Shown here: positions 2,064 to 64,000 of the stretch, piece after piece
Layout: every line of letters starts with the position of its first letter
Numbering within the stretch: position 1 is the stretch's first letter
DNA from: Escherichia phage Bp7
Length of the DNA stretch: 64,000 nucleotides
Sequence record: NC_019500.1
Reading direction: 5' to 3' (one strand)
Position numbers and translations under genes: made by a program
Notes under the pieces: model-generated
What the model was told of the DNA's origin: nothing
Seen by the model: only the letters and a program-made list of their open reading frames with translations
Database searches by the model: none

Positions 2064-2312
2064 ATGAACAAACAATTGAATCACGCTCTTGAACTGCAAC
2101 GCAACGCTTGGAACAACGGTCACGAAAACTACGGCGCATCTATTGATGTTGAAGCCGAAGCACTGGAAATCCTGCGTTATTTCAAACATCTGAATCCTGC
2201 TCAGGCTACTCTGGCTGCTGAACTGGAAGCTAAAGATGAACTGAAATTTGCTAAGCCTTTGGCTTCAGCAGCTCGTAAAGCAGTACGTCATTTTATTATT
2301 ACCCTGAAGTAA
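2064..2312 (+). CDS. rIII: probable rIII lysis-inhibition accessory protein
   Basis: 82 aa ORF in the T4 rIII position between gene 31 and the gene 30 region; size matches. Confidence 0.5.
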   Translation: MNKQLNHALELQRNAWNNGHENYGASIDVEAEALEILRYFKHLNPAQATLAAELEAKDELKFAKPLASAARKAVRHFIITLK

Positions 2313-2575
2313 ATTAAATCGAGGAGCCGTCGAACTGTTTGATTAATGATTTGCGAATCATTATAGTTTTAAGACCCCAACAGTTTTACGGTGTACCTCT
2401 TGAATGTATTTTGTACTATCACGCGTCAGAAAAAGGTTATCTGTCTAAGCCGTGGTCGGTATGATGACGAGGTTTATGGTTATCCTGTCGTTAAATATCC
2501 GAAACCTATGTTCCCCTTGAGGGCTTGCGCAGGCAACGCCAATAAGTCCTGCATCCTAATTTAAGAGATTTAAAA

Positions 2576-2737
2576 ATGGCTAAGAAAGAAGTTAAAGTAG
2601 TTGACGGTACCTCTAAACGCGCTGGTTACAAGCGTGCGTCCAACAAGCGTATCAATCAGGTAGTTGATAAGCTTCAAGCTCGTGCTCGTGCAGTATTGCG
2701 TGCAGATGCTGCTTGCTTTGGTAAGCCTCAGGCATAA
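2576..2737 (+). CDS. small basic hypothetical protein (53 aa)
   Basis: Own reading: ATG 2576, TAA 2735-2737; followed immediately by a strong intrinsic terminator. Confidence 0.35.
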   Translation: MAKKEVKVVDGTSKRAGYKRASNKRINQVVDKLQARARAVLRADAACFGKPQA

Positions 2738-2740
2738 GTT

Positions 2741-2772
2741 ATGGGACTCTTCGGAGTCCCATTTTTGTTTCT
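2741..2772 (+). terminator. intrinsic terminator hairpin GGGACTC-TTCG-GAGTCCC plus T-run
   Basis: Perfect 7-bp stem, tetraloop, TTTTTGTTT tail. Confidence 0.65.
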
Positions 2773-2788
2773 AAATCTTTAAAAAAGG

Positions 2789-2858
2789 GTGTACATCTCC
2801 GGTAGGCATGATACTATAGACATGTACCAAATAATACGAAAACAAACTGGAGAATAAA
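2789..2858 (+). promoter_or_regulatory. early promoter and conserved leader/RBS cassette (copy A)
   Basis: TGTACA-N17-TACTAT then tagacatgtaccaaataatacgaaaacaaactggagaataaaATG, shared with copy B. Confidence 0.5.
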
Positions 2859-3191
2859 ATGAAAACTGTAAATCTGAATGCATCTGTTAAAGCTAAATGT
2901 TTCAACGGTGAATATCAAGAAACCATGTGGGTCCTGACTGCAGTTGAAGGTGATATCATCGAAGTTGAAACAACTGAAGGTATGGGTACTGATTTTACAT
3001 TCACCATCGAGCTTCACAACTTCTTTACAGGTTGGATTTATGAACTGAAAACTGTAATTACTGGTCGTATTGAAGAAAACAAAAATGGTGAATTCTATTA
3101 TGTTAATGCCCGTACACGTGCTGAACGTCTGATTGCTCAGATGAAAAAAGTTGGTAAACTTGATATGAAAAATTGGAATGTTGTGAAATAA
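2859..3191 (+). CDS. hypothetical early protein
   Basis: 110-aa ORF directly behind repeated leader. Confidence 0.6.
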   Translation: MKTVNLNASVKAKCFNGEYQETMWVLTAVEGDIIEVETTEGMGTDFTFTIELHNFFTGWIYELKTVITGRIEENKNGEFYYVNARTRAERLIAQMKKVGKLDMKNWNVVK

Positions 3192-3194
3192 ATG

Positions 3195-3264
3195 TTTTAC
3201 TTTGGTACAGGTTGTGTTATTATAGACCTGTACCAAATAATACGAAAACAAACTGGAGAATAAA
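3195..3264 (+). promoter_or_regulatory. early promoter and conserved leader/RBS cassette (copy B)
   Basis: About 44 nt identical to copy A except one base, ending in GGAGAATAAAATG. Confidence 0.5.
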
Positions 3265-3630
3265 ATGAACTACATCAACTTCGAACGTAAATATGTTTCT
3301 AACGGTATCGCTGGTTCTTCTGAAGTTATTTGCCTGTGGAAACACAACAACGGCGCGGTGTGCGAAATCGAACAGTGCATGACTCCTAACTACGTTTATA
3401 TGCGCTTTGAAAATGGTATTACGGTTTCAATCACAATGGAAGGTTCTACTTTTAAAATCGCTTTAGATGATGATTTCCGTCAACGTGATTTAGGTACCCA
3501 TCCTTGCTGGAACGGTTCTAATCGTAAGCTTCTGGTTAAAACCTGGATTCGTCACATCCTGAGCAACCGAGCTAAACCTGAACACCTGGAAGCAATCTTT
3601 GATGTAGTTCTGAATGAATTCGATATCTAA
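3265..3630 (+). CDS. hypothetical early protein
   Basis: 121-aa ORF behind leader copy B; not a paralog of the 2859 ORF. Confidence 0.6.
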   Translation: MNYINFERKYVSNGIAGSSEVICLWKHNNGAVCEIEQCMTPNYVYMRFENGITVSITMEGSTFKIALDDDFRQRDLGTHPCWNGSNRKLLVKTWIRHILSNRAKPEHLEAIFDVVLNEFDI

Positions 3631-3671
3631 TCTTAAAAATGGAGGCTTCGGCCTCCTTTGAGGAAAATATT

Positions 3672-3959
3672 ATGTTTATGACCACTTATTTTGATACTCG
3701 TAAAAATTTCTGTGAAGTTGTTTTCTCTAAAGCAGGTAAAGATGTTCCTGCCGACAAACAACCTACTCGTGAATCTATTAAGGCTTATGCCGATGTTGTA
3801 TGCCCGGTAGAATTCCGTACTGTTAATGGTCGTGATACCCTAGCAATCACTAAGCTAAACCATGATATCAATATCGACCCAAGTGTCGCCCGTGAAGTCA
3901 ATACCTCTGACATCTATGGTGGTAATGTTAAATCACATGGCTTTCAGATGAGGTTCTAA
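3672..3959 (+). CDS. hypothetical protein
   Basis: Start moved to ATG 3672 (GAGGAAAA RBS); the upstream ATG at 3639 lies inside hairpin GGAGGCTTCGGCCTCC. Confidence 0.45.
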   Translation: MFMTTYFDTRKNFCEVVFSKAGKDVPADKQPTRESIKAYADVVCPVEFRTVNGRDTLAITKLNHDINIDPSVAREVNTSDIYGGNVKSHGFQMRF

Positions 3960-7508: not shown

Positions 7509-9593
7509 ATGACCGAACAATTAAATGAAGTGTTTGAGTCCGAAGGCACACTGCCTACAGTAAACTTGAACCCAAAACTTAAAGTACCCCAGATTTGGAA
7601 GATTGGTGACGCAGAATCCCAATTAGTGGCGCGTATGGTATCCTACGCTTCTGAAGGTGATGCTATTAAACAGGTTAAGATGGGTGATAAATATGCCCAC
7701 GTTATCCTTATGAGCCTTTCAGCTAAAGGTTCGCCTGCCGAACTTAAAGGTGGCCTAGGCCCTACTCCCGTAGATGCGATTAATACTATTTTTGATGTGG
7801 TTTATGACCAAGTTAAAAAGCTTCGTATGGATGCCGTGATGTTCCGTTTCCCTACTAAGAAAATGAAAGGTCAAGGCCCTATCGTTCAACGGATTATCCA
7901 ACGTTTGGTAGCACAGAAAACAGGTGGACGTTTTAAAGTAGTTCCGGCTATGTACCAATTTACCGGTAAACATACTTATATCCTAGTAGTTCGTAAACAG
8001 GCTGATATCGAAGATATCAAAGGTATGCCAGGAATTAATGCCGAATTATACACTAAGGTAGATTCTGATGTCGGTGAAGTTTATATTTCTAAAAAAGAAG
8101 GCGTGCAGGTTACTAAAGAAACTGCTATTGCCGGCAGTATTGCTAAAGTTGAAGAACGTCGCACTGATAAAATGGTTATAACCAAGACTAAGATTTCTCG
8201 TCGTGCCATTGCAGCAAGTCAATCGTTAGAATCTTATCGTAATGAAAGTGAACTGTTTAAGAAATATGAAGCAAATGCCGTAGATTTTAATAAACCTGCA
8301 ACAGCTCCATTAATCCCTGAGGCCCAGGAAATGGTTACTAATAACAATTCTCCCGCGGCTAAAAATAAGGTTGCTAATATAGTAGCTGAAGGTACTGCTG
8401 AAGAATTGCATTATGATTATAAAATGTTTCCTCTTCACGGTATAGGTGAAATCCAAGAGAAAATTAAAGATAAAATTCTTGCGGCCATCAAAAACGAACC
8501 TTTGACATCTGTTAAAGCTCTAGAAAAATATGCCTCTGCTATTAATACCGTTTTCGAAGAATACAAAGGTGAATGGCTGGCCCGGCATAACAAAACTCGT
8601 AAAGGCCAACCTGACGACCTCTGGAATGAATTGACCGATGCGAAGTGGAAAGCCGCCAAGACCAAGTTCATTAAAAAACGTGTATATAGTTTTGCCGGTG
8701 TAGGTGGCGGTATTATGGTCGATATTACTATTGCTCGTGAGGGCTCTAAATATACCCCATCACAAAAGCGCGGCATCAGAGAATATTGTGGCTCAGGATA
8801 TACAGACATAAATAATCTTCTTTTAGGACGCTATAACCCTCAGAACTATGAGGTTATGGGCGAAAAAGATATCGAATCTGCAGTTAATAATTTGGATTCT
8901 GCTTTTGAAAATGGCGACCGTATACCAGAAGGCATCACAGTTTATCGTGCACAGAGTATGACTGCTCCTATATACGAAGCACTAGTTAAAAATAAAGTGT
9001 TCTATTTCAGAAATTTTGTATCCACTTCATTGACTCCTATCATTTTTGGACGTTTTGGTGTTACACACGCCGGTATCGGTCTTTTAGAACCGGAAGTTCG
9101 CGATGAATTGACAGTCGATAAAAATGAAGAAGGAATAACTATTAATCCTAATGAAATAAGAGCATATAAAGAAAATCCTGATTATGTTAAAGTTCAAATA
9201 GGATGGGCTATTGATGGGGCTCATAAAGTTAATGTCGTATATCCAGGAAATCTCGGAATAGAAACTGAAGCCGAAGTTATTCTACCGCGTGGATTAATGG
9301 TCAAAGTTAATAAAATAACAGATGCTTCTAATAATGATGGAACAACATCTAGTAATACAAAACTCATCCAAGCTGAAGTTATGACAACAGATGAGCTTCA
9401 AGAATCTGTGGTATATGATGGTGACGTACTAATGGAAACCGGCGAGTTGGTCGTATATAAAGATGACTTCGATACTTCCGAAAGCCCTGTATCTTTTGAT
9501 TCATTTGTTAAATCTACACGGTTTGATGTATTGCCTCTTTTGGCTTCATGCATAGACCTCTATGACATCCCAGAAAAATTCATCCAAGGGTAA
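7509..9593 (+). CDS. Alt-like ADP-ribosyltransferase, divergent paralog 1
   Basis: 694 aa; ART R/STS/ExE elements (QKRGIREYCGSGY, FYFRNFVSTS, ETEAEVILPRGL); N-terminal LNE motif consistent with prohead protease processing. Confidence 0.85.
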   Translation: MTEQLNEVFESEGTLPTVNLNPKLKVPQIWKIGDAESQLVARMVSYASEGDAIKQVKMGDKYAHVILMSLSAKGSPAELKGGLGPTPVDAINTIFDVVYDQVKKLRMDAVMFRFPTKKMKGQGPIVQRIIQRLVAQKTGGRFKVVPAMYQFTGKHTYILVVRKQADIEDIKGMPGINAELYTKVDSDVGEVYISKKEGVQVTKETAIAGSIAKVEERRTDKMVITKTKISRRAIAASQSLESYRNESELFKKYEANAVDFNKPATAPLIPEAQEMVTNNNSPAAKNKVANIVAEGTAEELHYDYKMFPLHGIGEIQEKIKDKILAAIKNEPLTSVKALEKYASAINTVFEEYKGEWLARHNKTRKGQPDDLWNELTDAKWKAAKTKFIKKRVYSFAGVGGGIMVDITIAREGSKYTPSQKRGIREYCGSGYTDINNLLLGRYNPQNYEVMGEKDIESAVNNLDSAFENGDRIPEGITVYRAQSMTAPIYEALVKNKVFYFRNFVSTSLTPIIFGRFGVTHAGIGLLEPEVRDELTVDKNEEGITINPNEIRAYKENPDYVKVQIGWAIDGAHKVNVVYPGNLGIETEAEVILPRGLMVKVNKITDASNNDGTTSSNTKLIQAEVMTTDELQESVVYDGDVLMETGELVVYKDDFDTSESPVSFDSFVKSTRFDVLPLLASCIDLYDIPEKFIQG

Positions 9594-11648
9594 ATGATGG
9601 AAAATTTAAACGAAGTTTTTGATAGCGATTCCGCTAAAAACTATCCAGTAATAAATCTTAAACCAGGTTCCGGTATCCCACAGATTTTCTCTATTAAAGC
9701 ACCGGGTAATGATAACCTGGTTGCTCGTATGGTATCTTATGCGTCTCAAGGAGACGCTATTAAAATGGTTAAGCCGGGCGACAAATATGTCCACGTTATT
9801 CTAATGAGTTTGTCAAGCAAGGGTGCTCCGGCTGAACTCAAAGGTGGTCTTGGTTCTGACCCACTCGGTACGCTGAATACCATTTTTGATACTGTATACG
9901 AACAAGTAAACAAACTTAAAATGGATGCGGTTTTATTCCGTTTCCCTACCAAGAAAATGAAAGGTAAGGGCCCTACTGTTCAGCGTGTATTAGCTCGTTT
10001 GGCTATGGCTCGTACTGGTGGTAAGTTTAAAGTTGTTGATGCCATGTACCAATTCACTGGAAAACATACCTATGTTCTTTTAGTACGTCGTGGCACTAAT
10101 ATTGAAGATATCAAGGGTATGCCTGAAATTGATGCCGAACTTTATACTAAGGTTGAGTCCAAAGTTGGCGAAGTTTATGTTTCTAAGGAAACCGGCCAGT
10201 CCGTAAGTAAGGCCGAAGCTGTCTCGGCAAGTATAGCTAAGGTTGAAGAGAAACGTACTGATAAGGCCGTCATTACCAAGACTAAGATTTCTCGTCGTGC
10301 TATTGCTATGTCGCAATCCTTAGAATCGTCACGATTTGAAACTCCTATGTTTAAGAAATTTGATTCTAATGCTGCTGAATTGAATAAACCGGCTACGGCT
10401 CCTTTAATGTCAGAAGCAAATGAAATAAAGGTTATTTCTAATTCTTTCTTGGCTTTAGAAAATACCATTAGTGCTAATACTGGTGGTATGTCGTTTAAAG
10501 ACAACCTTCTTATTCCAGAAGATAAAATGGAAGAAATTAATACCGACATAAAAATGAGAGCTTTTGAGAAATTACATGGATTAAATGTGACTTCAGTAAA
10601 AGCCCTAGAAAATTATGCTTCAGTGGTTGATGACGTCATCGAAGAATATAAAGGTCCTTGGCTTCAAAAGCTAATGGCTCAACATTCACACCTAGGTTAT
10701 CACGAAGCAGTCGAGTTGGCTGAAAATTCTTGGAATGCTATAAAGACCAAAATTATTCAACGTGAGCTGCGTGTTTACGCTCTTACCGCCGGTTGGCAAT
10801 TGCATTCTATTATAGAAAATAAAGACGCGTCTCGTTATACTCCTGCCCAGAAACGTGGTATTCGTGAATATGTTGGCTCCGGTTACGAAGATATGAATAA
10901 TGTTCTTTTAGGTCTCCATGACCCGAATGTAAGAAGCAGTATTCTGACTAATGAAGACATAGAAAAAGCTATCAATAACTTAGATTCTGCTTTTGAAAAT
11001 GGCGAACGTCTACCACCAGGTATTACTCTTTATCGTTCCCAACGAATGATTCCTGATATTTACTTGGCTATGATTAGCAATAAAGTATTCTATTTCAGAA
11101 ACTTTGTTTCAACTGCGATATATCCGAATATTTTTGGTACATGGATGACTGATTCTGGTGTTGGTCTTTTGCCTGACGAAAAACGTCGTGATGTTGCATT
11201 AGACAAATCGGATGAAGGTTTAGTATATTCGAATAAAGATACTTTAGTAGGTATTGGTTGGGCCTTTACCGGTACAGATAAGGTAAATGTCGTTTTACCT
11301 GGTGGAGACTTGGCTCCTTCTAACGAAATGGAAGTAATTCTTCCTAGGGGTTTGATGGTCAAAATCAATAAAATTACAGATGCTTCATACAATAACGGAA
11401 CTACTCGTTCTAACAATAAGTTCGTTCAAGCCGAAGTAATGACTGCAGACGAACTTAATGAAGCCGTGGTGTACGATGGTGATGCTCTGATGGAAACAGG
11501 CGAACTAGTTGTCTATAAAGAGGGTAATGAGCTTTCTTTTGATTCTTTTGTTTCTAATGAGAAGAAAAAGAAATCAGACAGAGGTCTTGGCTTGTTAGCT
11601 TCTTGTATAGATATCGACGCTCTCCAGTATAAATTTGTACAAGGGTAG
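9594..11648 (+). CDS. alt: Alt ADP-ribosyltransferase (packaged, modifies host RNA polymerase), paralog 2
   Basis: 684 aa; QKRGIREYVGSGY, FYFRNFVSTA, NEMEVILPRGL, C-terminal LLASCIDI...KFVQG shared with paralog 1. Confidence 0.88.
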   Translation: MMENLNEVFDSDSAKNYPVINLKPGSGIPQIFSIKAPGNDNLVARMVSYASQGDAIKMVKPGDKYVHVILMSLSSKGAPAELKGGLGSDPLGTLNTIFDTVYEQVNKLKMDAVLFRFPTKKMKGKGPTVQRVLARLAMARTGGKFKVVDAMYQFTGKHTYVLLVRRGTNIEDIKGMPEIDAELYTKVESKVGEVYVSKETGQSVSKAEAVSASIAKVEEKRTDKAVITKTKISRRAIAMSQSLESSRFETPMFKKFDSNAAELNKPATAPLMSEANEIKVISNSFLALENTISANTGGMSFKDNLLIPEDKMEEINTDIKMRAFEKLHGLNVTSVKALENYASVVDDVIEEYKGPWLQKLMAQHSHLGYHEAVELAENSWNAIKTKIIQRELRVYALTAGWQLHSIIENKDASRYTPAQKRGIREYVGSGYEDMNNVLLGLHDPNVRSSILTNEDIEKAINNLDSAFENGERLPPGITLYRSQRMIPDIYLAMISNKVFYFRNFVSTAIYPNIFGTWMTDSGVGLLPDEKRRDVALDKSDEGLVYSNKDTLVGIGWAFTGTDKVNVVLPGGDLAPSNEMEVILPRGLMVKINKITDASYNNGTTRSNNKFVQAEVMTADELNEAVVYDGDALMETGELVVYKEGNELSFDSFVSNEKKKKSDRGLGLLASCIDIDALQYKFVQG

Positions 11649-11677
11649 TTTACAAACGCCAAGGATGGTGGTACTAT
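11648..11677 (+). promoter_or_regulatory. early promoter GTTTACA-N17-TACTAT
   Basis: Same architecture as cassettes at 2789, 28271 and 63854; -35 overlaps alt stop. Confidence 0.45.
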
Positions 11678-11705
11678 TACCTTACACAAACATGAGGAGA
11701 ACATT

Positions 11706-11996
11706 ATGAAATCTGCATTCCGCTTTAACGGTCAAGAACTGGTAGTTGAAAACGTTATCCCTGCTTCCGAAGAGTTTGACAGTGCAGTTGGTAATGAATT
11801 GCGTCGAGTTTTCGGTGAAGATAAGCAATTTGATATCCGTCCTGTTGAGAACTTTTCTCATCCGGAACAAACCGAAAACATTTTTAATGGTGTAGTGACT
11901 GGTCAGCTTGAATCTGAAGCTCCTATTTCAGTTACGGTGTTTGTTAAAAAGCAACCACTAATGACTGCAGCAGGTTTCATTTCGTTCCGTAAATAA
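11706..11996 (+). CDS. hypothetical protein (alt-downstream position)
   Basis: 96-aa ORF with GAGGAG RBS, followed by terminator. Confidence 0.5.
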   Translation: MKSAFRFNGQELVVENVIPASEEFDSAVGNELRRVFGEDKQFDIRPVENFSHPEQTENIFNGVVTGQLESEAPISVTVFVKKQPLMTAAGFISFRK

Positions 11997-25663: not shown

Positions 25664-26944
25664 TTATTTTTCTAAAGGCGGTAATTTTACGCCGAGATAA
25701 GAACTCAATTGACTTTGATTAGCCATTTTGTCCATATCAGAACCATCAATAATGCGGGCTTCTTTATCGTCCTTAGCGACGGTATAAGGGTTTGCAGTCA
25801 ATGCATAACGAGCAAGCAATGCTACTGTAGGTTGTAAGCTTTCCGGGTCAACAATAACCTTAAATTCACCAACTGAAGTATCACCTTCTTCGTCAACCAC
25901 ATTCAAACCTTCCGTATAAGGCGCATAATATAAAGATGCGACCGTCTGTCCTTCACCCATCTGGGCATTTACACCAACAATAACATAATCACATGGACTA
26001 TTCATATCAGCATAAAGTGGTAGGCCATTCTTTAATATACCATAAGCCAATTCGTCCTGGTCTTCCTTTTTCTCAACCCAACCAGAGGCGGCGAGAATAG
26101 CAGCACAACGAGAACTAGCTACTGCATAAGTCCCGGCAAAAGAAGTCTGTCGTTGGACGGCAGAGTTCATCTCACACATATAATAATATAATGTGCGAGC
26201 ACGGTCCTGGGCATTATCGTAGCGAGGGTTGGTAAGGTCTAATACACCCTTTTCAGAAACACCCTGGACTTTAAAACGAGAGCTCACGGTAATTAATGAC
26301 TGTAATACATCCTTATTAATTTCTTCTGCCATTTGAATGCCTAGCAGATTTTCAACGAAATTAGGAGCATTAAACCCGTTAGATTCTAGGTCTTGGGCTA
26401 ATTCGACTGTCAATGAAGTTTTCAGTTTACGTGATTTAACTTCAGATTGCCATTTGTCGATGCGGAATCCGGTTTCAGCAATTTCAGGATGGCCTTGTTC
26501 AAATTTAGAAGTAATAGCAGCATCCGACACCATACGGATATGGCCGGCTGCCACTGCTTCAGAAATAACTTCGCTGAGGTTGGTTTCTGTGGTTCCGGCG
26601 AAAGGAGATGCTTCTAGAACTTTAAACACTACGCTTTCAAACTGGAACATATCACCGACCGCATAAGCTGTAGATGAATCAGTAAATTCTGGAATATTTT
26701 CACGTTCCGTCATACCAATCTGGCCCGCAAATGTTGCTCCACCAAGATAAGTCATTTTGTCGTCAGGGTTCAGTACACGTACCCCATACAGAGCAGCAAC
26801 CGGTTGATTTGTTTTTTGTTCAGCAACTAGGGCTTTAAAGATTCGTTTATTAGTTGCTTGGGTGTATGAAAGAAGAGCAGGACGGCCAACCGAGCTGGCA
26901 GCCGTCAATGTGGATTCTTTAATTAGGTCTACAATCTTAGACAT
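25664..26944 (-). CDS. gp24-like head vertex protein, divergent paralog
   Basis: 426 aa; shares LQSLITVS, VELAQDLESNGF, LARYALTANPYTVAKDDKEARIIDGSDMDKMA with adjacent gp24 at roughly half identity. Confidence 0.85.
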   Translation of the reverse strand: MSKIVDLIKESTLTAASSVGRPALLSYTQATNKRIFKALVAEQKTNQPVAALYGVRVLNPDDKMTYLGGATFAGQIGMTERENIPEFTDSSTAYAVGDMFQFESVVFKVLEASPFAGTTETNLSEVISEAVAAGHIRMVSDAAITSKFEQGHPEIAETGFRIDKWQSEVKSRKLKTSLTVELAQDLESNGFNAPNFVENLLGIQMAEEINKDVLQSLITVSSRFKVQGVSEKGVLDLTNPRYDNAQDRARTLYYYMCEMNSAVQRQTSFAGTYAVASSRCAAILAASGWVEKKEDQDELAYGILKNGLPLYADMNSPCDYVIVGVNAQMGEGQTVASLYYAPYTEGLNVVDEEGDTSVGEFKVIVDPESLQPTVALLARYALTANPYTVAKDDKEARIIDGSDMDKMANQSQLSSYLGVKLPPLEK

Positions 26945-28227
26945 TAATCAGCCTCGTAAATAATTGCCGGAAGTTTAACGCCAACCAGATAAGACATATT
27001 GCTCTGTCCAGCCATTAAATCCATATTGGTTGCATCGATAACACGAGCTTCTTTATCGTCTTTAGCCACGGTGTACGGGTTAGCTGATAGTGCATAACGA
27101 ACCATCAGAGAAATAGAAGGTTGTAATGAATCCGGGTCAACAATAACCTTATAAGCACCGACGTGTTCTTGGTCATCTAAATCTAAGCCTTCGGTATAGG
27201 GAGCGTAGAAAATAGAACCGACAACTTCATTACCGCCGTAATTCTCTTTAACACCAACGGTAACATAATCTAATGGACTGTTAACGTCACAAAACAGAGG
27301 CAGACCATTCAACAAATATCCGTATGCAGTTTCCGGAAGCCAATTATTATCTTCGGGTTTATGTTTTAACCAGCCAGAACCTGCAAGCATTGCAGCCACA
27401 CGACTTGAAGCCACAACAAACGTGCCAGAATAAGAAGTAGTTTTCTGGATTTCAGAATTCATCTCACAAACGAGTTCATAAAGTTTACGTGCAGATTCAG
27501 GAGCACTGTCATAAGACAAATCGATGATGCCGTTATCAGATACACCAGTAACTTTATAACGTTTGGATACGGTTATTAGAGATTGCAGAACGTCTTTATT
27601 AATTTCATCTGCCATTACTGTAGCCAAGAGGTCTTCTAAGAACGCCGGCGCGTCAAAGCCATTTGATTCCATATCCTGCGCTAATTCTACAGTCAAAGCC
27701 GTCTTCAATTTACGGGTCTTAACCGGAGCATTCCATTTATTAACCTGGAATACGGCATCAGAGATTTCTACATCACTCGCTTCAAATTTAGTGGTATGGG
27801 CAGCATCAGGAACCAGACGACATGTTAATGACACTAAACCTTCTTGAAGAGCATCAGCCAATTCTGTGGCGCTAGTGGACGCGAGTGGGCTTGCTTTAAG
27901 AGCCTTATAAACCACATTCTGATACTTGAAATATTCACCCTGAGCAATCGCCTGGGCCTTATCTGTGAGTTCTGGGATAGTTTCACGGTCTTTAGAACCA
28001 ACTTCACCACCATAAGAGGCACCTGTCTGGAAACTAAATTCATTATCAGGGGTAAGATATTTGACACCATACAGTGCAGCAATAGGCTGGCTAGTACGTT
28101 GTTCGGCGATAATATCACGGTAAATCAATTTGGTTGTAGCACGGGTCAAAGCAACAAGATTAGGGCGACCCAATGAGTTGCTGGAAGTAGTTGTTGACTC
28201 GCGCAGTAATTCGTTAATCTTTGCCAT
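26944..28227 (-). CDS. 24: head vertex protein gp24
   Basis: 427 aa; MAKINELLRESTTT... matches remembered T4 gp24. Confidence 0.9.
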   Translation of the reverse strand: MAKINELLRESTTTSSNSLGRPNLVALTRATTKLIYRDIIAEQRTSQPIAALYGVKYLTPDNEFSFQTGASYGGEVGSKDRETIPELTDKAQAIAQGEYFKYQNVVYKALKASPLASTSATELADALQEGLVSLTCRLVPDAAHTTKFEASDVEISDAVFQVNKWNAPVKTRKLKTALTVELAQDMESNGFDAPAFLEDLLATVMADEINKDVLQSLITVSKRYKVTGVSDNGIIDLSYDSAPESARKLYELVCEMNSEIQKTTSYSGTFVVASSRVAAMLAGSGWLKHKPEDNNWLPETAYGYLLNGLPLFCDVNSPLDYVTVGVKENYGGNEVVGSIFYAPYTEGLDLDDQEHVGAYKVIVDPDSLQPSISLMVRYALSANPYTVAKDDKEARVIDATNMDLMAGQSNMSYLVGVKLPAIIYEAD

Positions 28228-28255
28228 TGCGCTTTCCTTATTGAGGGTATATGTT

Positions 28256-28263
28256 TATTTATA
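28256..28263 (-). promoter_or_regulatory. late promoter TATAAATA for gene 24
   Basis: tatttata on plus strand just upstream of gp24 start. Confidence 0.45.
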
Positions 28264-28270
28264 AAAGTTG

Positions 28271-28299
28271 TTTACAGCAAGATTCTCACATGTTACTAT
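28271..28299 (+). promoter_or_regulatory. early promoter TTTACA-N17-TACTAT
   Basis: Read directly; drives the plus-strand ORF at 28329. Confidence 0.5.
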
Positions 28300-28328
28300 A
28301 GACCTATCAAAACATGAGGAGATTAAAA

Positions 28329-28595
28329 ATGAACAAGTTAAACTTTATTCGTACTACTCTTTCCGCTCTTGATAAAGACATCAAAGCTCTGGTAGAAAAA
28401 TTCGGTAACAATCCTAATGGTAATGCAGTGAATGCCTTAGTTAAGAAATACGAAGCCATGGCTTATGCTACCGACTTCTGGTGGAACGGTGAATACTCTA
28501 CCCATACCAAAGACAAATCTGGTAACTGGCTGAAAATCCAAGAAAATCGTATTGACTTCCGTGATATCATCAACCGCCGAGTTAAGATTGCATAA
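28329..28595 (+). CDS. hypothetical early protein inserted between late genes 23 and 24
   Basis: 88-aa ORF with GAGGAG RBS behind early promoter; opposite strand to flanking capsid genes. Confidence 0.5.
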   Translation: MNKLNFIRTTLSALDKDIKALVEKFGNNPNGNAVNALVKKYEAMAYATDFWWNGEYSTHTKDKSGNWLKIQENRIDFRDIINRRVKIA

Positions 28596-28608
28596 TACAG
28601 AAACAAGA

Positions 28609-28628
28609 ATGGGAGACCGAAGTCTCCC
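28609..28628. terminator. hairpin GGGAGAC-CGAA-GTCTCCC between convergent gene 23 and the small ORF
   Basis: Read directly; T-richer tail on minus side. Confidence 0.45.
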
Positions 28629-28644
28629 ATAATAAGGTTATATC

Positions 28645-30204
28645 TTAGATACCTTTAACATATACGCGACGGAAGTAACCATTCAGACCAAGGCTGTTAA
28701 CGATGTCAGGCATACCATTCTGGATACGTTTGGTAGGAGCCTGAGCAGCAGGGTCAGCGAACGGGTTGATACCGATACCGTAACGAGTTTTGAAGCCCAT
28801 TACCGGTTGGAAGTTCTTCGGATCGGAACCACGCAGCGGGGTCAGTGCAACGTACGGAGCATAGTAGATACCTGCGTCCATTTCGTTAGCGCCTTTATAA
28901 CCAATGGTGAAGTAATCGGAACGTGCATACTGGTCGATGTAAACGCGATATTTACCACCAAGAACACCGGCAAATACTGCTTTGGTTGTGTCAACGTTGA
29001 AACCTTGACCCAGACCTTGAGCTGCATAACTTACAGAAGTATCAACTGCAGCCAGTACGTTAACTACGTTACGGGAAGCGATGATGAAGTTACCAGCACC
29101 ACGACCGGTCTGACGAGCGATTTCCGCTGCTTCTTTATCAATCTGGAACAGAAGGGCTTTAAAGCTCTCACCGGCCCAACGAGCACCACGGATATCAATC
29201 GGGTCCTGGAAGTCAAACACACCAGCTTTAGCGCCGACGGTGTTAGTCATACCAGATTTACCAACCTGTGCAGAGTAGTTAATCCAATCGATAACTTCAC
29301 GGTTGATTTCGAGCATAATTTCGGTAGCAAGGATACCGGACAGTTCAGCATCTGCATCCATACCGTGTACTGCACGAAGGTCCTGTGCCAGTTCGATAGA
29401 GTAGCTTGCTTTCAGCTGACGGGATTTAGCTTCGATAACTTGTTTGTCGATGCGGAAGCCCATTTCGTTCCACGGGTTATCGGTAGAACCGTTAAAGCCT
29501 TCCTGAAGTTCAGCGATAGAAGTAGCCATACCTTCAGCCAATTCAGCCAACTTACCAGCTTCAATCAAAGCGGTAACAGCAGCATCCAGTTTAGCGGCAT
29601 CAGTAGCAGCAGCATCAACGGTTACAGCTTCAACAGCCTGGAAGTGTGCAGCACCGGTAGCTTCGAAGAAGTGGGAATAAATTTTACCAACTTCCAGAAC
29701 TTTGCTTGCAGCCAGTGCTTCGAAAGATTTAGCAGCACCCTGACCAGAGAACATAGCGTCCGGAGAATACATCGGATGGAAAGCTTCTTTAGCGCCAGCA
29801 GCGATAGGGTCTTTACCATAAACTGCACGAAGGGCAAATACCTGGCCGGTAGGGTTATTCAGAGGCTGAACACCACAAATGTCAAAAGCAATCAGATGAG
29901 GAATAGCACGACGAACCATACCCATTACTGCCGGCCCAATCTGAGTTACAGCACCAGAAGTCTGGCCAGCTGCGATATTGGTAGCATCATAACCGTGGTC
30001 ACCACCGATTTCAGCTTCGGTCAGGAAAGAACCAAATGCTTCAGAGATTTTTTCGTCACGATATTCCGGAGCAGTCAGGATGTCTTGTTCCTGGTTTTCG
30101 AAAATTTTAGCGATGATAGCTTGTTTAGAAGCACCAACGATTTCAGGAAGAGCTTCGTTTTCCAGCAGAGCGGACCATTTTTGAACTAATGCATTCTTTT
30201 TCAT
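28645..30204 (-). CDS. 23: major capsid protein
   Basis: 519 aa; long stretches identical to remembered T4 gp23. Confidence 0.97.
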   Translation of the reverse strand: MKKNALVQKWSALLENEALPEIVGASKQAIIAKIFENQEQDILTAPEYRDEKISEAFGSFLTEAEIGGDHGYDATNIAAGQTSGAVTQIGPAVMGMVRRAIPHLIAFDICGVQPLNNPTGQVFALRAVYGKDPIAAGAKEAFHPMYSPDAMFSGQGAAKSFEALAASKVLEVGKIYSHFFEATGAAHFQAVEAVTVDAAATDAAKLDAAVTALIEAGKLAELAEGMATSIAELQEGFNGSTDNPWNEMGFRIDKQVIEAKSRQLKASYSIELAQDLRAVHGMDADAELSGILATEIMLEINREVIDWINYSAQVGKSGMTNTVGAKAGVFDFQDPIDIRGARWAGESFKALLFQIDKEAAEIARQTGRGAGNFIIASRNVVNVLAAVDTSVSYAAQGLGQGFNVDTTKAVFAGVLGGKYRVYIDQYARSDYFTIGYKGANEMDAGIYYAPYVALTPLRGSDPKNFQPVMGFKTRYGIGINPFADPAAQAPTKRIQNGMPDIVNSLGLNGYFRRVYVKGI

Positions 30205-61497: not shown

Positions 61498-62088
61498 ATG
61501 AACGGTTTATTTAACCAAACTAACACTACTAACTTTATCTTAGAGGTTAGTGACGCAGGAATGACGCAGGCATTCAAATTGAACGTACAAGATGTAACAC
61601 TACCAGGTATCCATATTCCGGTCTCAGACGTCCCAGGATCGACCCAGGGTATACATCGTGCTAAGCTGCCAGGTTCTACTGTAGAATTCGACCCATTGAT
61701 TGTGAACTTTCTTGTGGACCGTGAATTGAAATCATGGCTTGACGTTTATAAGTGGATGCTGTCATTAAACAACTACGTAACCCATGATTCAGAAGCCTGG
61801 CATCCTAAAGGTCAGCCGGAAGCTATCACCCTCCACATCCTTGATAACAACAAACAGAAAATCGTAATGAGCATTCATTACTACGGTGGTTGGCCATCCG
61901 ACCTCTCGGAAATCCAGTACTCTTATAAAGAGGATTCTGACCCAGCGATAATCGCCACAGCAACATTCAACTTCAAATCGTTTGCTGTAGAAATAGATGG
62001 TACAATAGTTACAGGTCGTCCACAAATTGATTCGTATGCCGAACAACGAGTGGCTCGTATGTCTATGCATCCATCTATGAGAAAATAA
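61498..62088 (+). CDS. 3: tail tube terminator / tail completion protein
   Basis: Start at MNGLFNQ; tube-protein-like sequence; synteny. Confidence 0.8.
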   Translation: MNGLFNQTNTTNFILEVSDAGMTQAFKLNVQDVTLPGIHIPVSDVPGSTQGIHRAKLPGSTVEFDPLIVNFLVDRELKSWLDVYKWMLSLNNYVTHDSEAWHPKGQPEAITLHILDNNKQKIVMSIHYYGGWPSDLSEIQYSYKEDSDPAIIATATFNFKSFAVEIDGTIVTGRPQIDSYAEQRVARMSMHPSMRK

Positions 62089-62841
62089 TGAAACTAATAT
62101 CAATTGTAGGAATCAAACGTAGCGGTAAGGATACCGTTGCTAACTATGTAATCGAAAATATGGATTCGGTAAAATTTCAGCTCGCAGGTCCTATTAAAAA
62201 GTATCTGGCTGAAGCCTATGAATACATCTCTGATGACCCTGTATTCGACCGTAGTTACATGCCTAAACTAGATTTTAACTGTTTTGAAGGTATCGGTTAC
62301 GACCGTGAAGAAATCATTCCTTTAAAACCATATGATGTGATTGATATCTTTGAAAATGCTATTGTCAAACTGAATAATATCCTTCCTATTCCAGGAATGG
62401 ATGTTCGTACCGCATATCATTATGGTCTTACCCCAGTCCAGTATCTGTCTGAAGAAACAAAAGACCAACTGTTTGAAGTAATAAATAAAAATAACAATTG
62501 GTCAGTACGTCGTCTCATGCAGACCCTTGGGACTGATATTATTGTTAACCAATTTGATAAGATGTATTGGGTTAAGTTGTTCGCTTTAGGCGATTTTGAT
62601 AAAATATACTCTGATGCGAAATACTATGTCGTACCTGATGTTCGTCAAACACACGAAATTGATTCGCTCAGAGCGATGGGTGCTACGATTATTCATGTAG
62701 TTCGCGCTGAAACCGGTCAAGTACAAGACTCGCACATCACTGAAGCGGGTCTACCAATTTTACCTGGTGACGTTGTTGTTGAAAATAACGGCACTCTTTC
62801 TGAACTATACACTACTATTGATAAATTATTAGGAAATAAAA

Positions 62842-62849
<8 letters not shown>
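62088..62849 (+). CDS. 1: deoxynucleoside monophosphate kinase
   Basis: P-loop GIKRSGKDT; WSVRRLMQTLGTD; YYVVPDVRQ as T4 gp1. Confidence 0.92.
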
Positions 62850-63494
<645 letters not shown>

Positions 63495-63569
63495 AGAATA
63501 TAAAGAACCCTTGAAGCTCGACTGGGCTGAAGACCTAAAATAATTTAAACCATTCAAACGAAATCAAAA

Positions 63570-63848
63570 ATGAAAACCTATCAAGAATTTAGTAAATCTC
63601 AAGCAGTTGCTCCTATCACTGAAGCTAGTGTTATGAGTGAAGTTATAGCTCTGAACAAAGGCCGCGAAGGTAAACCAGTTATAGGCCTTAATGGTGAAGA
63701 GCTTAAAGGCACTGTTTATCTGGGTGATGGTTATCACGCCAAAAAAGATGGCGGAAGCATTGTTATTTCGCCAGCTCAAGAATCTTCTGTCATGAAAACT
63801 GTTTACATTGCTACTAAACACTTTGATATTTTGAAAAAAGCTCTTTAA
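63570..63848 (+). CDS. internal head protein (IP-family, capsid targeting sequence)
   Basis: N-terminal MKTYQEF matches the T4 IP capsid-targeting leader; I-T-E at residues 16-18 fits the gp21 cleavage consensus. Confidence 0.6.
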   Translation: MKTYQEFSKSQAVAPITEASVMSEVIALNKGREGKPVIGLNGEELKGTVYLGDGYHAKKDGGSIVISPAQESSVMKTVYIATKHFDILKKAL

Positions 63849-63853
63849 AGTTG

Positions 63854-63882
63854 TTTACAACAGGGTTGTAGTGTGATACTAT
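63854..63882 (+). promoter_or_regulatory. early promoter TTTACA-N17-TACTAT
   Basis: Near-copy of the 28271 promoter. Confidence 0.5.
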
Positions 63883-63918
63883 GACCCTATCAAAACAAAT
63901 GAGTGATTGGAGAATAAA

Positions 63919-64000
63919 ATGAAACGTTGTGAATTAATTAGAAATGTTACTGCACTGGCCGCCGTTACTGCTTTTGGCTTTAGTATGTTTGCAGGATTAC
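63919..64000 (+). CDS. 5' end of ORF (partial) with hydrophobic N-terminus
   Basis: MKRCELIRNVTALAAVTAFGFSMFAGL... runs off window. Confidence 0.4.
   Translation, partial: MKRCELIRNVTALAAVTAFGFSMFAGL

Follow-up and report, generated by a model that had tools for sequence, protein, structure and literature searches.

Near-identical early promoter-leader cassettes around gene 30.8 of Escherichia phage Bp7: likeness to promoter-early stem-loops and a probable role as recombination linkers

The promoter-early stem-loops (PeSLs) were described in phages RB49 and phi1 by Arbiol et al. 2010 (PMC2839356) and in PST/T4 and nt-1/KVP40 by Comeau et al. 2014 (PMC4122927), the T4/PST elements having the consensus TTTACW...TAYWAT with sigma-70 spacing (PMC4122927). 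Their promoter and terminator activity and the formation of mini-circles come from experiments on the RB49/phi1 elements, and the same authors speculated on a recombination protein that binds the stem-loop (PMC2839356). Promoter-associated repeats at the internal-protein (IP) loci of T-even phages go back to Repoila et al. 1994, cited here as related in PMC2839356 and PMC4122927. Three further descriptions are relevant: the UP / -35 / TGn / -10 architecture of the T4 early ('uber') promoters (Hinton 2010, PMC2988021), the consensus GG*AGRAYARAA of strong RegB/S1 sites in T4 early mRNAs (PMC3014915), and the hairpins of T4 e, soc, 49 and I-TevI, which silence read-through RNA (Uzan and Miller 2010 review, PMC3014915). 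The present work concerns two cassettes, A and B, which precede genes 30.8 and 30.7 in a stretch of 64,000 nucleotides of Escherichia phage Bp7 (NC_019500.1); this whole stretch is called the window, and all positions refer to it. A and B are probably T-even early sigma-70 promoter-leader cassettes of the PeSL class which serve recombination as linkers. The copies and the genes that follow them are:

2809-2863, plus strand: repeat copy A, with TGn, -10, initial transcribed region, 30-nt leader, GGAGAATAAAATG and codon 2
3215-3269, plus strand: repeat copy B, found with the 47-nt pattern and by the unbiased repeat search
2859-3191, plus strand: gene 30.8, 110 aa, Pfam Phage_30_8, bracketed by cassettes A and B
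3265-3630, plus strand: gene 30.7, 121 aa, Pfam Phage_T4_Gp30_7

The 47-nt pattern TATAGACNTGTACCAAATAATACGAAAACAAACTGGAGAATAAAATG is present in exactly two copies in the window, at 2815-2861 and 3221-3267, both on the plus strand, with 0 copies expected (100 dinucleotide shuffles). From the -10 through the ATG, 46 of the 47 nucleotides are the same in A and B. A previous examination of the letters alone, called below the sequence-only reading, had reported a near-identical stretch ahead of open reading frames (ORFs) starting at 2859 and 3265; both starts are as it gave them, and the likeness is non-random. Self-comparison of the window, carried out as an unbiased repeat search, recovered the same pair and extended it to 55 nt at 95% identity (2809-2863 vs 3215-3269), in direct orientation and with a spacing of 406 bp; among all repeats of promoter regions in the 64 kb, none but this pair reaches a comparable identity. 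The similarity is not confined to the promoter hexamers, as it spans the -10, the 30-nt leader and the ribosome-binding site and enters codon 2. Within it, the 30-nt stretch caaataatacgaaaacaaact is without a known function-specific motif and is the same in A and B in one lineage only.

Over positions 2400-3900 the identity of the window is 99.5% with coliphage IME281 and 97% with JS98, two members of Dhakavirus (Tevenvirinae). The annotations of JS98 and T4 identify the ORF at 2576 as gene 30.9, that at 2859-3191 as 30.8 and that at 3265-3630 as 30.7; the 30.9-30.8-30.7 group is located in the early region, with rIII on one side and the DNA ligase gene 30 on the other. The products gp30.8 and gp30.7 belong to separate Pfam families of unknown function (PF06019 and PF06919), and their comparison gave a BLASTP E of 25 and a profile-profile hhalign probability of 0.1% (8-sequence profiles). 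Paralogy of the two proteins is ruled out by these three results, in agreement with the sequence-only reading.

The anatomy of the cassettes and of the region immediately upstream is given by the following elements:

2391-2419, plus strand: early-type promoter of gene 30.9, GTGTAC-N17-TACTAT, found by a regular-expression scan and predicted to be active
2741-2768, plus strand: terminator-like hairpin 3' of gene 30.9, GGGACTC-TTCG-GAGTCCC and a T-run (terminator scan; fold z -3.1)
2769-2788, plus strand: A/T-rich, UP-element-like tract of cassette A, tctaaatctttaaaaaagg, upstream of the -35, as compared with the T4 early architecture (PMC2988021)
2789-2817, plus strand: promoter A (P30.8), -35 GTGTAC at 2789-2794, 17-nt spacer, TGn at 2809-2811, -10 TACTAT at 2812-2817
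3195-3223, plus strand: promoter B (P30.7), -35 TTTTAC at 3195-3200, 17-nt spacer, TGn at 3215-3217, -10 TATTAT at 3218-3223
2849-2861, plus strand: GGAGAATAAAATG, Shine-Dalgarno sequence and start codon of 30.8, matching the RegB consensus
3255-3267, plus strand: GGAGAATAAAATG, Shine-Dalgarno sequence and start codon of 30.7, matching the RegB consensus

The promoter of 30.9 is the first of three promoters in a row at the locus, and the UUCG-loop hairpin (2741-2762) stands after the 30.9 stop codon, directly upstream of promoter A. The AT-rich tract of cassette A, tctaaatctttaaaaaa at 2770-2786, is located 3' of the stop codon and terminator of 30.9; in cassette B the stop codon of 30.8 (TAA, 3189-3191), followed by atg, lies immediately 5' of the -35. 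Both promoters are presumably active, and the sigma-70 geometry would place the transcription starts near 2824 (A) and 3230 (B). The leader ahead of GGAGAATAAAATG is about 35 nt long, A-rich and the same in both cassettes, and GGAGAATAAAATG itself is found three times without mismatch in the window, where 0.01 copies are expected. Transcripts from the cassettes' own promoters are predicted to be unstructured in the case of A (2824-2879, minimum free energy 0 kcal/mol) and almost unstructured in the case of B (from 3230, -0.7 kcal/mol). At 2849-2859, 3255-3265 and 63909-63919 the sequence GGAGAATAAAA fits the strong RegB/S1 consensus GGAGRAYARAA in all 11 positions, and the early mRNAs carrying it are probably RegB targets; no regB gene lies in the 64-kb window. 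A search of Rfam with the whole window gave no match at the gathering score, and over 2300-3700 at E <= 1 chance-level matches only.

The likeness of A and B proved to be a property of single lineages. In T4 and its close relatives the promoter and leader of 30.8 are unrelated to those of 30.7 except for GGAGAATAAA; all JS98-like genomes have a leader common to A and B, and the Dhakaviruses share 44-55 nt. In other lineages the two cassettes have the following blocks in common:

Klebsiella Jiaodavirus JIPh_Kp122 and relatives: gttactatagacctgtaccacccaaac, 27 nt, different from the Dhakavirus block
L036-type loci: ggtatagtactcttacaccaacaaa
L033-type loci: gtgttatagtataaactcaat
L043-type loci: atgtacactcaatca

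Because non-orthologous cassettes of one genome share blocks that are absent from the orthologs in other lineages, repeated gene conversion between A and B is indicated. An identity matrix for the last 50 nt before the ATG brought out homogenisation distinctly in Dhakavirus alone (94-96%) and to a modest degree in the L033 and L036 types, and since its baseline for A-rich 50-mers is already 60-75%, shared exact blocks were used instead. The 30.8/30.7 pair is the recently homogenised extreme of the T-even early promoter-leader class.

The comparison of gene content among related phages revealed a replacement, two deletions, an insertion and homogenisation at the cassettes. Gene 30.8 has two alleles with 37-40% protein identity, the IME341-type Dhakaviruses having one of 38% identity exchanged exactly between the cassettes, and the values for 30.9, 30.7 and 30.6 are 78-99%. 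Compared with the window, phage IME341 (locus L008) shows about 100% identity as far as 2865, 40-55% over 2875-3176 and 98-100% from 3195 on; the left switch point is in the ACTGGAGAATAAAATGAAAA block and the right one in TTTACTTTGGTACAGGTT. Its 30.8 allele is about 93-95% identical to that of Gaprivervirus VR20, a phage in which the promoter of 30.8 is unrelated. Both alleles were found among the best-matching Dhakaviruses, interleaved with respect to the identity of their flanks to the window (locus spans 1055 vs 1092 bp).

The deletions left a single cassette each. Locus L047, a Klebsiella-phage contig, is devoid of 30.8 and of the following ORF (f13); its cassette is A-type until ACGGAGAATAAA, which contains the junction, and B-type after it, and the flanks of the locus share about 99% identity with the undeleted loci L045 and L017. 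In Mosigvirus JM10 gene 30.9 is joined to 30.7 by a cassette whose -35 and spacer are of A type and whose -10 and leader are of B type. The two deletions are independent events, each with one chimeric cassette as its product, and they are consistent with excision of the inter-cassette segment as a mini-circle. No deletion of 30.8 within Dhakavirus was found among about 43 best-matching records, the single-piece match to the junction being Mosigvirus JM10. Dhakavirus C6 (MW679410, L053:1704-2060) contains an extra ORF of 118 aa, proline-rich, without a Pfam match and with a UUCG-loop terminator of its own, inserted between the 30.9 terminator and cassette A. Across 34 loci the 30.9-30.7 interval holds 0-3 ORFs from at least five families. 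The crossovers are situated in functional motifs of 12-20 nt: the RegB-type ribosome-binding site, the region adjacent to the -10, and the -35 with a hairpin arm.

The explanation proposed here starts from the composition of the cassette, which combines, in this order, a stem-loop, an UP-like tract, the -35/TGn/-10 elements, a structure-free A-rich leader and GGAGAATAAAATG, the latter acting as a strong ribosome-binding site and RegB consensus. Since its own cassette carries promoter, leader and ribosome-binding site, each small ORF would be an autonomous immediate-early expression unit, and because the cassettes are alike and in direct orientation, the efficient homologous recombination of the phage could use them as linkers. 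Exchange between A and B within a genome would lead to gene conversion and homogenised cassettes, which is the proposed origin of the 46/47-nt identity in the JS98 lineage; the alternative outcome of the same exchange would be loss of the intervening gene with one chimeric cassette left behind. Exchange between the cassettes of co-infecting phages would replace the ORF between them. The linker reading is carried by the identity and anatomy of the copies, the recombination products seen in relatives and the structural conservation of the hairpin. The suggestion of the sequence-only reading that these are portable regulatory cassettes which could mediate recombinational gene shuffling is thereby supported, and it had already been published in the form of PeSL-mediated modular shuffling.

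Inverted repeats around each -10 had also been noted before. Both exist, 2791-2799 / 2819-2827 in A (9 nt, 89% complementary) and 3201-3212 / 3226-3237 in B (12 nt, 100% complementary), but only that of B folds significantly (z -3.8 vs -0.7 relative to shuffles), its predicted energy being -20.2 kcal/mol:

3201-3237, plus strand: hairpin of cassette B, 5' arm TTTGGTACAGGT in the spacer, -10 in the loop, 3' arm ACCTGTACCAAA at the predicted start

Hairpins in the promoter of 30.7 were found in seven lineages, with z values from -3.5 to -7.1. Their layout is the same throughout, the 5' arm lying in the -35/-10 spacer and the 3' arm downstream of the -10, and the sequences of the arms differ (5' arm / 3' arm):

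window: TTTGGTACAGG / CCTGTACCAAA
Jiaodavirus: GGGTGGT / ACCACCC
L036: TTGGTGTAGGAGTA / TACTCTTACACCAA
L043: CTGATTGGGTGT / ACACTCAATCAG
L033: CTCCGTTGTATGT / ACATACAACGGAG
L048: CTCCGAGGTTT / AAACCTCGGAG

Covariation was computed within the L033 group only, the stems of the other lineages being in different registers; 98.7% of the cells are paired there, and three compensatory pairs were observed, all three from one lineage. The three wobble positions (in L027, L036 and L043) are all G-T on the sense strand, that is, G-U in the sense RNA. In the P30.7 cassettes of L033, L040 and L048 the 3' arm covers the Shine-Dalgarno sequence, and weaker pairing of this sequence is predicted for T4 P30.8, for P30.8 of the window and for P-orf173 of the window. 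In cassette A of the window a pairing of 8 bp, UCUCCGGU/ACUGGAGA, is predicted, with a spacer-shuffle p of 0.004 and a z of -0.7 for the fold of the whole sequence. Complementarity between spacer and leader, evaluated with shuffled spacers, reached p < 0.05 in 8 of 14 non-redundant cassettes, which speaks for the hairpins, with a combined Fisher p of 4e-10.

Because the 5' arm is upstream of the predicted start site, the hairpin would form only in read-through transcripts. It would most likely attenuate, end or stabilise transcripts coming from upstream, and in the lineages in which the 3' arm is on the Shine-Dalgarno sequence, translation of the read-through RNA would be blocked. For the hairpin of B in the window, possible roles are 3' stabilisation of the 30.8 mRNA or attenuation. 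The conservation of the structure suggests a regulatory role. A more general idea, put forward tentatively and on balance doubtful, is that promoter-embedded hairpins are general, compensatorily evolving insulators of the immediate-early cassettes of Tevenvirinae, silencing or ending read-through RNA. If this were true, the early promoter of each small ORF would be its only source of expression, and the ORF would be off once the early promoters and the RegB-sensitive leaders shut down, and the late-gene logic of e, soc and 49 would be extended to early genes. Context-independence would then let the units move, swap or be deleted without disturbing their neighbours, linking regulatory design to evolutionary plasticity.

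Several observations weigh against the linker reading or against the part assigned to the hairpin. The inverted repeat of A folds no better than shuffles, so that a hairpin in A comparable to that in B is unsupported. The Fisher p of 4e-10 for spacer-leader complementarity overstates independence, as the 14 cassettes are partly orthologous. In cassette B of the window about 17 nt separate the last position of the 3' arm, 3237, from the first of the Shine-Dalgarno sequence, 3255, and the latter is not sequestered; moreover, the hairpin lacks a U-tract and was not picked up by the terminator scan, and a role as classical intrinsic terminator is therefore doubtful. The JM10 and L047 deletions are represented by single assemblies each, in which an assembly error is possible. 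That replacement breakpoints fall at conserved motifs is to be expected of any homologous exchange and is no proof of the cassettes being preferred sites. In IMG/VR the exact 38-nt leader occurs at this locus only, in six Dhakavirus genomes; its presence ahead of other genes was ruled out in that search, and therefore the term 'portable' fits the class of cassettes and not this particular sequence. Finally, the recombination enzymes, promoter use, start sites, RegB cleavage and hairpin function called upon by the reading are all inferred.

The likeness of A and B could also be a matter of functional convergence only, early promoters, leaders and RegB-sensitive sites being under the same selection, with recombination neither producing nor exploiting the similarity. 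The TGn, the -10, the A-rich unstructured leader and the RegB match in GGAGAATAAAATG are indeed explained by shared function, T4 early promoters share extended consensus regions (PMC2988021), and similar leaders of the TACTATAGACCTATCAA type are found ahead of many unrelated ORFs. Convergence is nevertheless quite improbable, since it does not account for a stretch such as caaataatacgaaaacaaact, which lacks a known function-specific motif, is the same in A and B in one lineage only and is absent from the five other early promoters of the window, nor for the different, again pairwise-shared sequences of other lineages, nor for the chimeric cassettes exactly at the deletion junctions. An old tandem duplication, in which a promoter-gene unit was doubled and 30.8 and 30.7 are diverged paralogs, would be in keeping with units that are adjacent, co-oriented and of similar size (110 and 121 aa) and that both start with ATGAA. 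This origin is extremely improbable, as the proteins show no similarity by BLASTP, hhalign or Pfam family, T4 has both genes yet dissimilar promoters and leaders, and the non-coding identity (98%) is far above the coding similarity, the reverse of what is expected of an old duplication.

A different kind of alternative, unlikely on the present evidence, is that the inverted repeat acts as DNA, either as an operator for a dimeric regulator or as a cruciform whose cleavage (e.g. by endonuclease VII) would start recombination. The symmetry of the arms around the -10, the stem-loop-binding recombination protein speculated by the PeSL authors (PMC2839356), the IME341 crossover in the 5' arm and the JM10 crossover adjoining the -10 would all suit such a mechanism. 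On the other hand, the arms differ completely between lineages while their pairing is kept, which argues against a sequence-specific protein site; all three wobbles are G-T on the sense strand, where the other strand would have an A-C mismatch; and the coincidence of the 3' arm with the Shine-Dalgarno sequence in several lineages indicates an RNA-level logic. Promoter-leader cassettes used as recombination linkers, with a hairpin working in RNA, are thus retained as the preferred reading.

Three other early-promoter sites of the window belong to the wider family:

11648-11708, plus strand: early promoter and leader of the alt.-3 homolog, GTTTAC-N18-TACTAT, leader taccttacacaaacatGAGGAG, ATG at 11706
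28264-28331, plus strand: early promoter and leader of an 88-aa ORFan (JS98 orf173), between the late genes 24 and 23
63847-63921, plus strand: early promoter and leader of a trna.4-like membrane protein, adjoining an internal-protein-like ORF

The promoters of the type GTTTAC-N18-TACTAT (equivalent to GTTTACA-N17-TACTAT) begin at 11648, 28270 and 63853. The sequence-only reading had placed them at 11648, 28271 and 63854, so that all of them exist and the last two coordinates were off by one. It had also ascribed similar leaders to these sites, and here a partial likeness was confirmed, 76% over 51 nt between 28264-28314 and 63847-63897 and 75% over 32 nt between 11669-11700 and 28291-28322, but the long A/B leader is not shared. 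The three sites have in common the blocks AAAGTTGTTTACA, TACTAT(A)GACCT and CCTATCAAAACA and a transcript start of the CCTAYCAAAACA type; what links them to the A/B pair is no more than the extended T-even consensus for early promoters and a short motif in the initial transcribed region. A degenerate pattern for the three sites was discarded, as it had been derived from the same sites and its statistics were circular. The 'family' is the T-even early promoter-leader class.

The cassette at 63853 has a hairpin overlapping its -10 (z -2.4). Most of the 589 phage records matching there match only a cassette-centred segment of about 40-100 nt, and because only 4 phage records match at least 80% of the 1-kb query, this kilobase was regarded as a hyperplastic region. 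In the 62000-64000 interval genes 57A and 57B are followed by the internal-protein-like ORF (63570-63848, MKTYQEF...) and then by the 63853 cassette. In the frd region of Mosigvirus G2469 an unrelated ORF is preceded by a leader with 97-100% identity to the 35 nt at 28291-28325. That region (L054:860-1530) comprises three consecutive small ORFs, each with a promoter and leader of the TACTATAGACYTATCAA type, the first leader being the one whose 35 nt have 97% identity to window 28291-28325. The slot that separates gene 24 from gene 23 (window 27950-28750) is occupied in relatives by the ORFan alone, by the ORFan and a segD homing endonuclease (IME08 and LF82 phages), or is empty (VR25 and others).

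Some further features were observed in the course of the analysis. A non-coding block of about 136 nt, GCGGCAAGTGCATGCTACCCCGAGG...GGTGTGCAACAGATAAGAG, lies between rIII and 30.9 with more than 90% identity across genera, the flanking proteins having about 50%. It is located at L046:2548-2683, L033:1956-2091, L040:1709-1844 and L043:1435-1570, occurs also in L036 and L045, and is absent from the window (2419-2455 being unrelated), from T4 and from L024. RNAalifold gave a consensus of -40 kcal/mol comprising 45 pairs, of which 6 show compensatory changes, and no Rfam match was obtained for the block, which on this model is a candidate for a structured RNA not yet annotated in T4-like phages. 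The non-coding segment 5' of 30.9 at 2455-2545 of the window (ggttatcctgtcgttaaatatccgaaacctatgttccccttgagggcttgcgcaggc) is 95-97% identical to T4, above the neighbouring ORFs; a 1-nt indel in T4 makes coding unlikely, and even Klebsiella- and Enterobacter-type loci have retained the core cccttgagggcttgcg. Tandem genes for Alt-like ADP-ribosyltransferases occupy 7509-9593 and about 9600-11650 with about 74% DNA identity, and JS98 is annotated likewise. A direct repeat of 70% (25679-25873 vs 26968-27162) reflects a tandem duplication of the capsid vertex gene 24, as in JS98. The window is without tRNA genes; in JS98 three of them stand between 57B and orf136.

The accepted view of T4 biology is not altered by these data, which supply a published model with one more well-resolved case. 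The locus is a compact natural example in which every product predicted for cassette-mediated shuffling, namely conversion of the cassettes, allele replacement with the cassettes as bounds, deletions with a chimeric cassette left behind and an adjacent insertion, occurs in sequenced phages, and it could be a test bed for the exchange of accessory genes in T4-type phages, a question of relevance to host-range evolution and to the genetic stability of phages used in therapy.

The comparison with known systems places the cassettes at different distances from each. As in the T4 'uber' promoters, both have an A-tract, a GTTTAC-like -35, a spacer of 17 nt, and a TAnnAT -10 with TGn before it; that description is, however, one of promoter strength, not of repeated leaders or recombination. 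As in the RegB/S1 sites, GGAGAATAAAA is in the translation initiation region of early genes within a leader predicted to be unpaired, whereas cleavage is here surmised from the consensus match. The hairpins of T4 e, soc, 49 and I-TevI are alike in that the promoter is inside the hairpin, their own transcripts being without the 5' arm and the longer upstream transcripts folding; for cassette B the same geometry follows by the predicted start (about 3230) only, with the 5' arm (3201-3212) in the spacer, and among the orthologs of B, those of L033, L040 and L048 have the Shine-Dalgarno sequestration as well. They differ in having late (gp55) promoters, TATAAATA, where the present ones are early sigma-70 promoters with -35, TGn and -10, and the 30.7 hairpin of the window leaves the Shine-Dalgarno sequence free; therefore no membership in the class of e, soc, 49 and I-TevI is claimed. 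To the IP-locus repeats of Repoila et al., as far as they are related in the two PeSL papers, the likeness is that T4-type early promoter segments and AT-rich stem-loops flank highly variable small genes, that the 63853 cassette adjoins an IP-like ORF (MKTYQEF...) and that its sequence is kept in 589 phage records with the flanks in only 4; the A/B pair is at a different locus.

The closest system is that of the PeSLs, in spite of some differences. The stems here contain A and U and are without the G-run and C-run arms; the window cassettes are known from sequence, the RB49/phi1 elements from reporter and mini-circle experiments; and the near-perfect identity of the whole leader, together with lineage-specific homogenisation, is not described in the two PeSL papers, neither of whose texts (PMC2839356 and PMC4122927) names the 30.9-30.8-30.7 locus, Dhakavirus, gene conversion or compensatory change. 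All PeSL features that belong to the sequence level are present. The promoter hexamers are TTTACT and TATTAT in B and TGTACA (one mismatch) and TACTAT in A, each -10 being preceded by TGn; A and B both have the stop codon and the AT-rich region; the stem-loop, which in PeSLs lies between or across the promoter boxes or a short way upstream of them, is the perfect 12-bp stem in B and the upstream UUCG hairpin in A, its own repeat being weak; GGAGAATAAAATG provides the Shine-Dalgarno sequence and start codon at the 3' end of both; and the region is hyperplastic, with small ORFs of unknown function, allele replacement, deletions and an insertion. In A and B, as in the PeSLs, a stop codon, an AT-rich tract, a sigma-70 early promoter, a stem-loop, a Shine-Dalgarno sequence and an ATG follow in the same order, ahead of small ORFs of unknown function and tied to insertions, deletions and replacements among close relatives.

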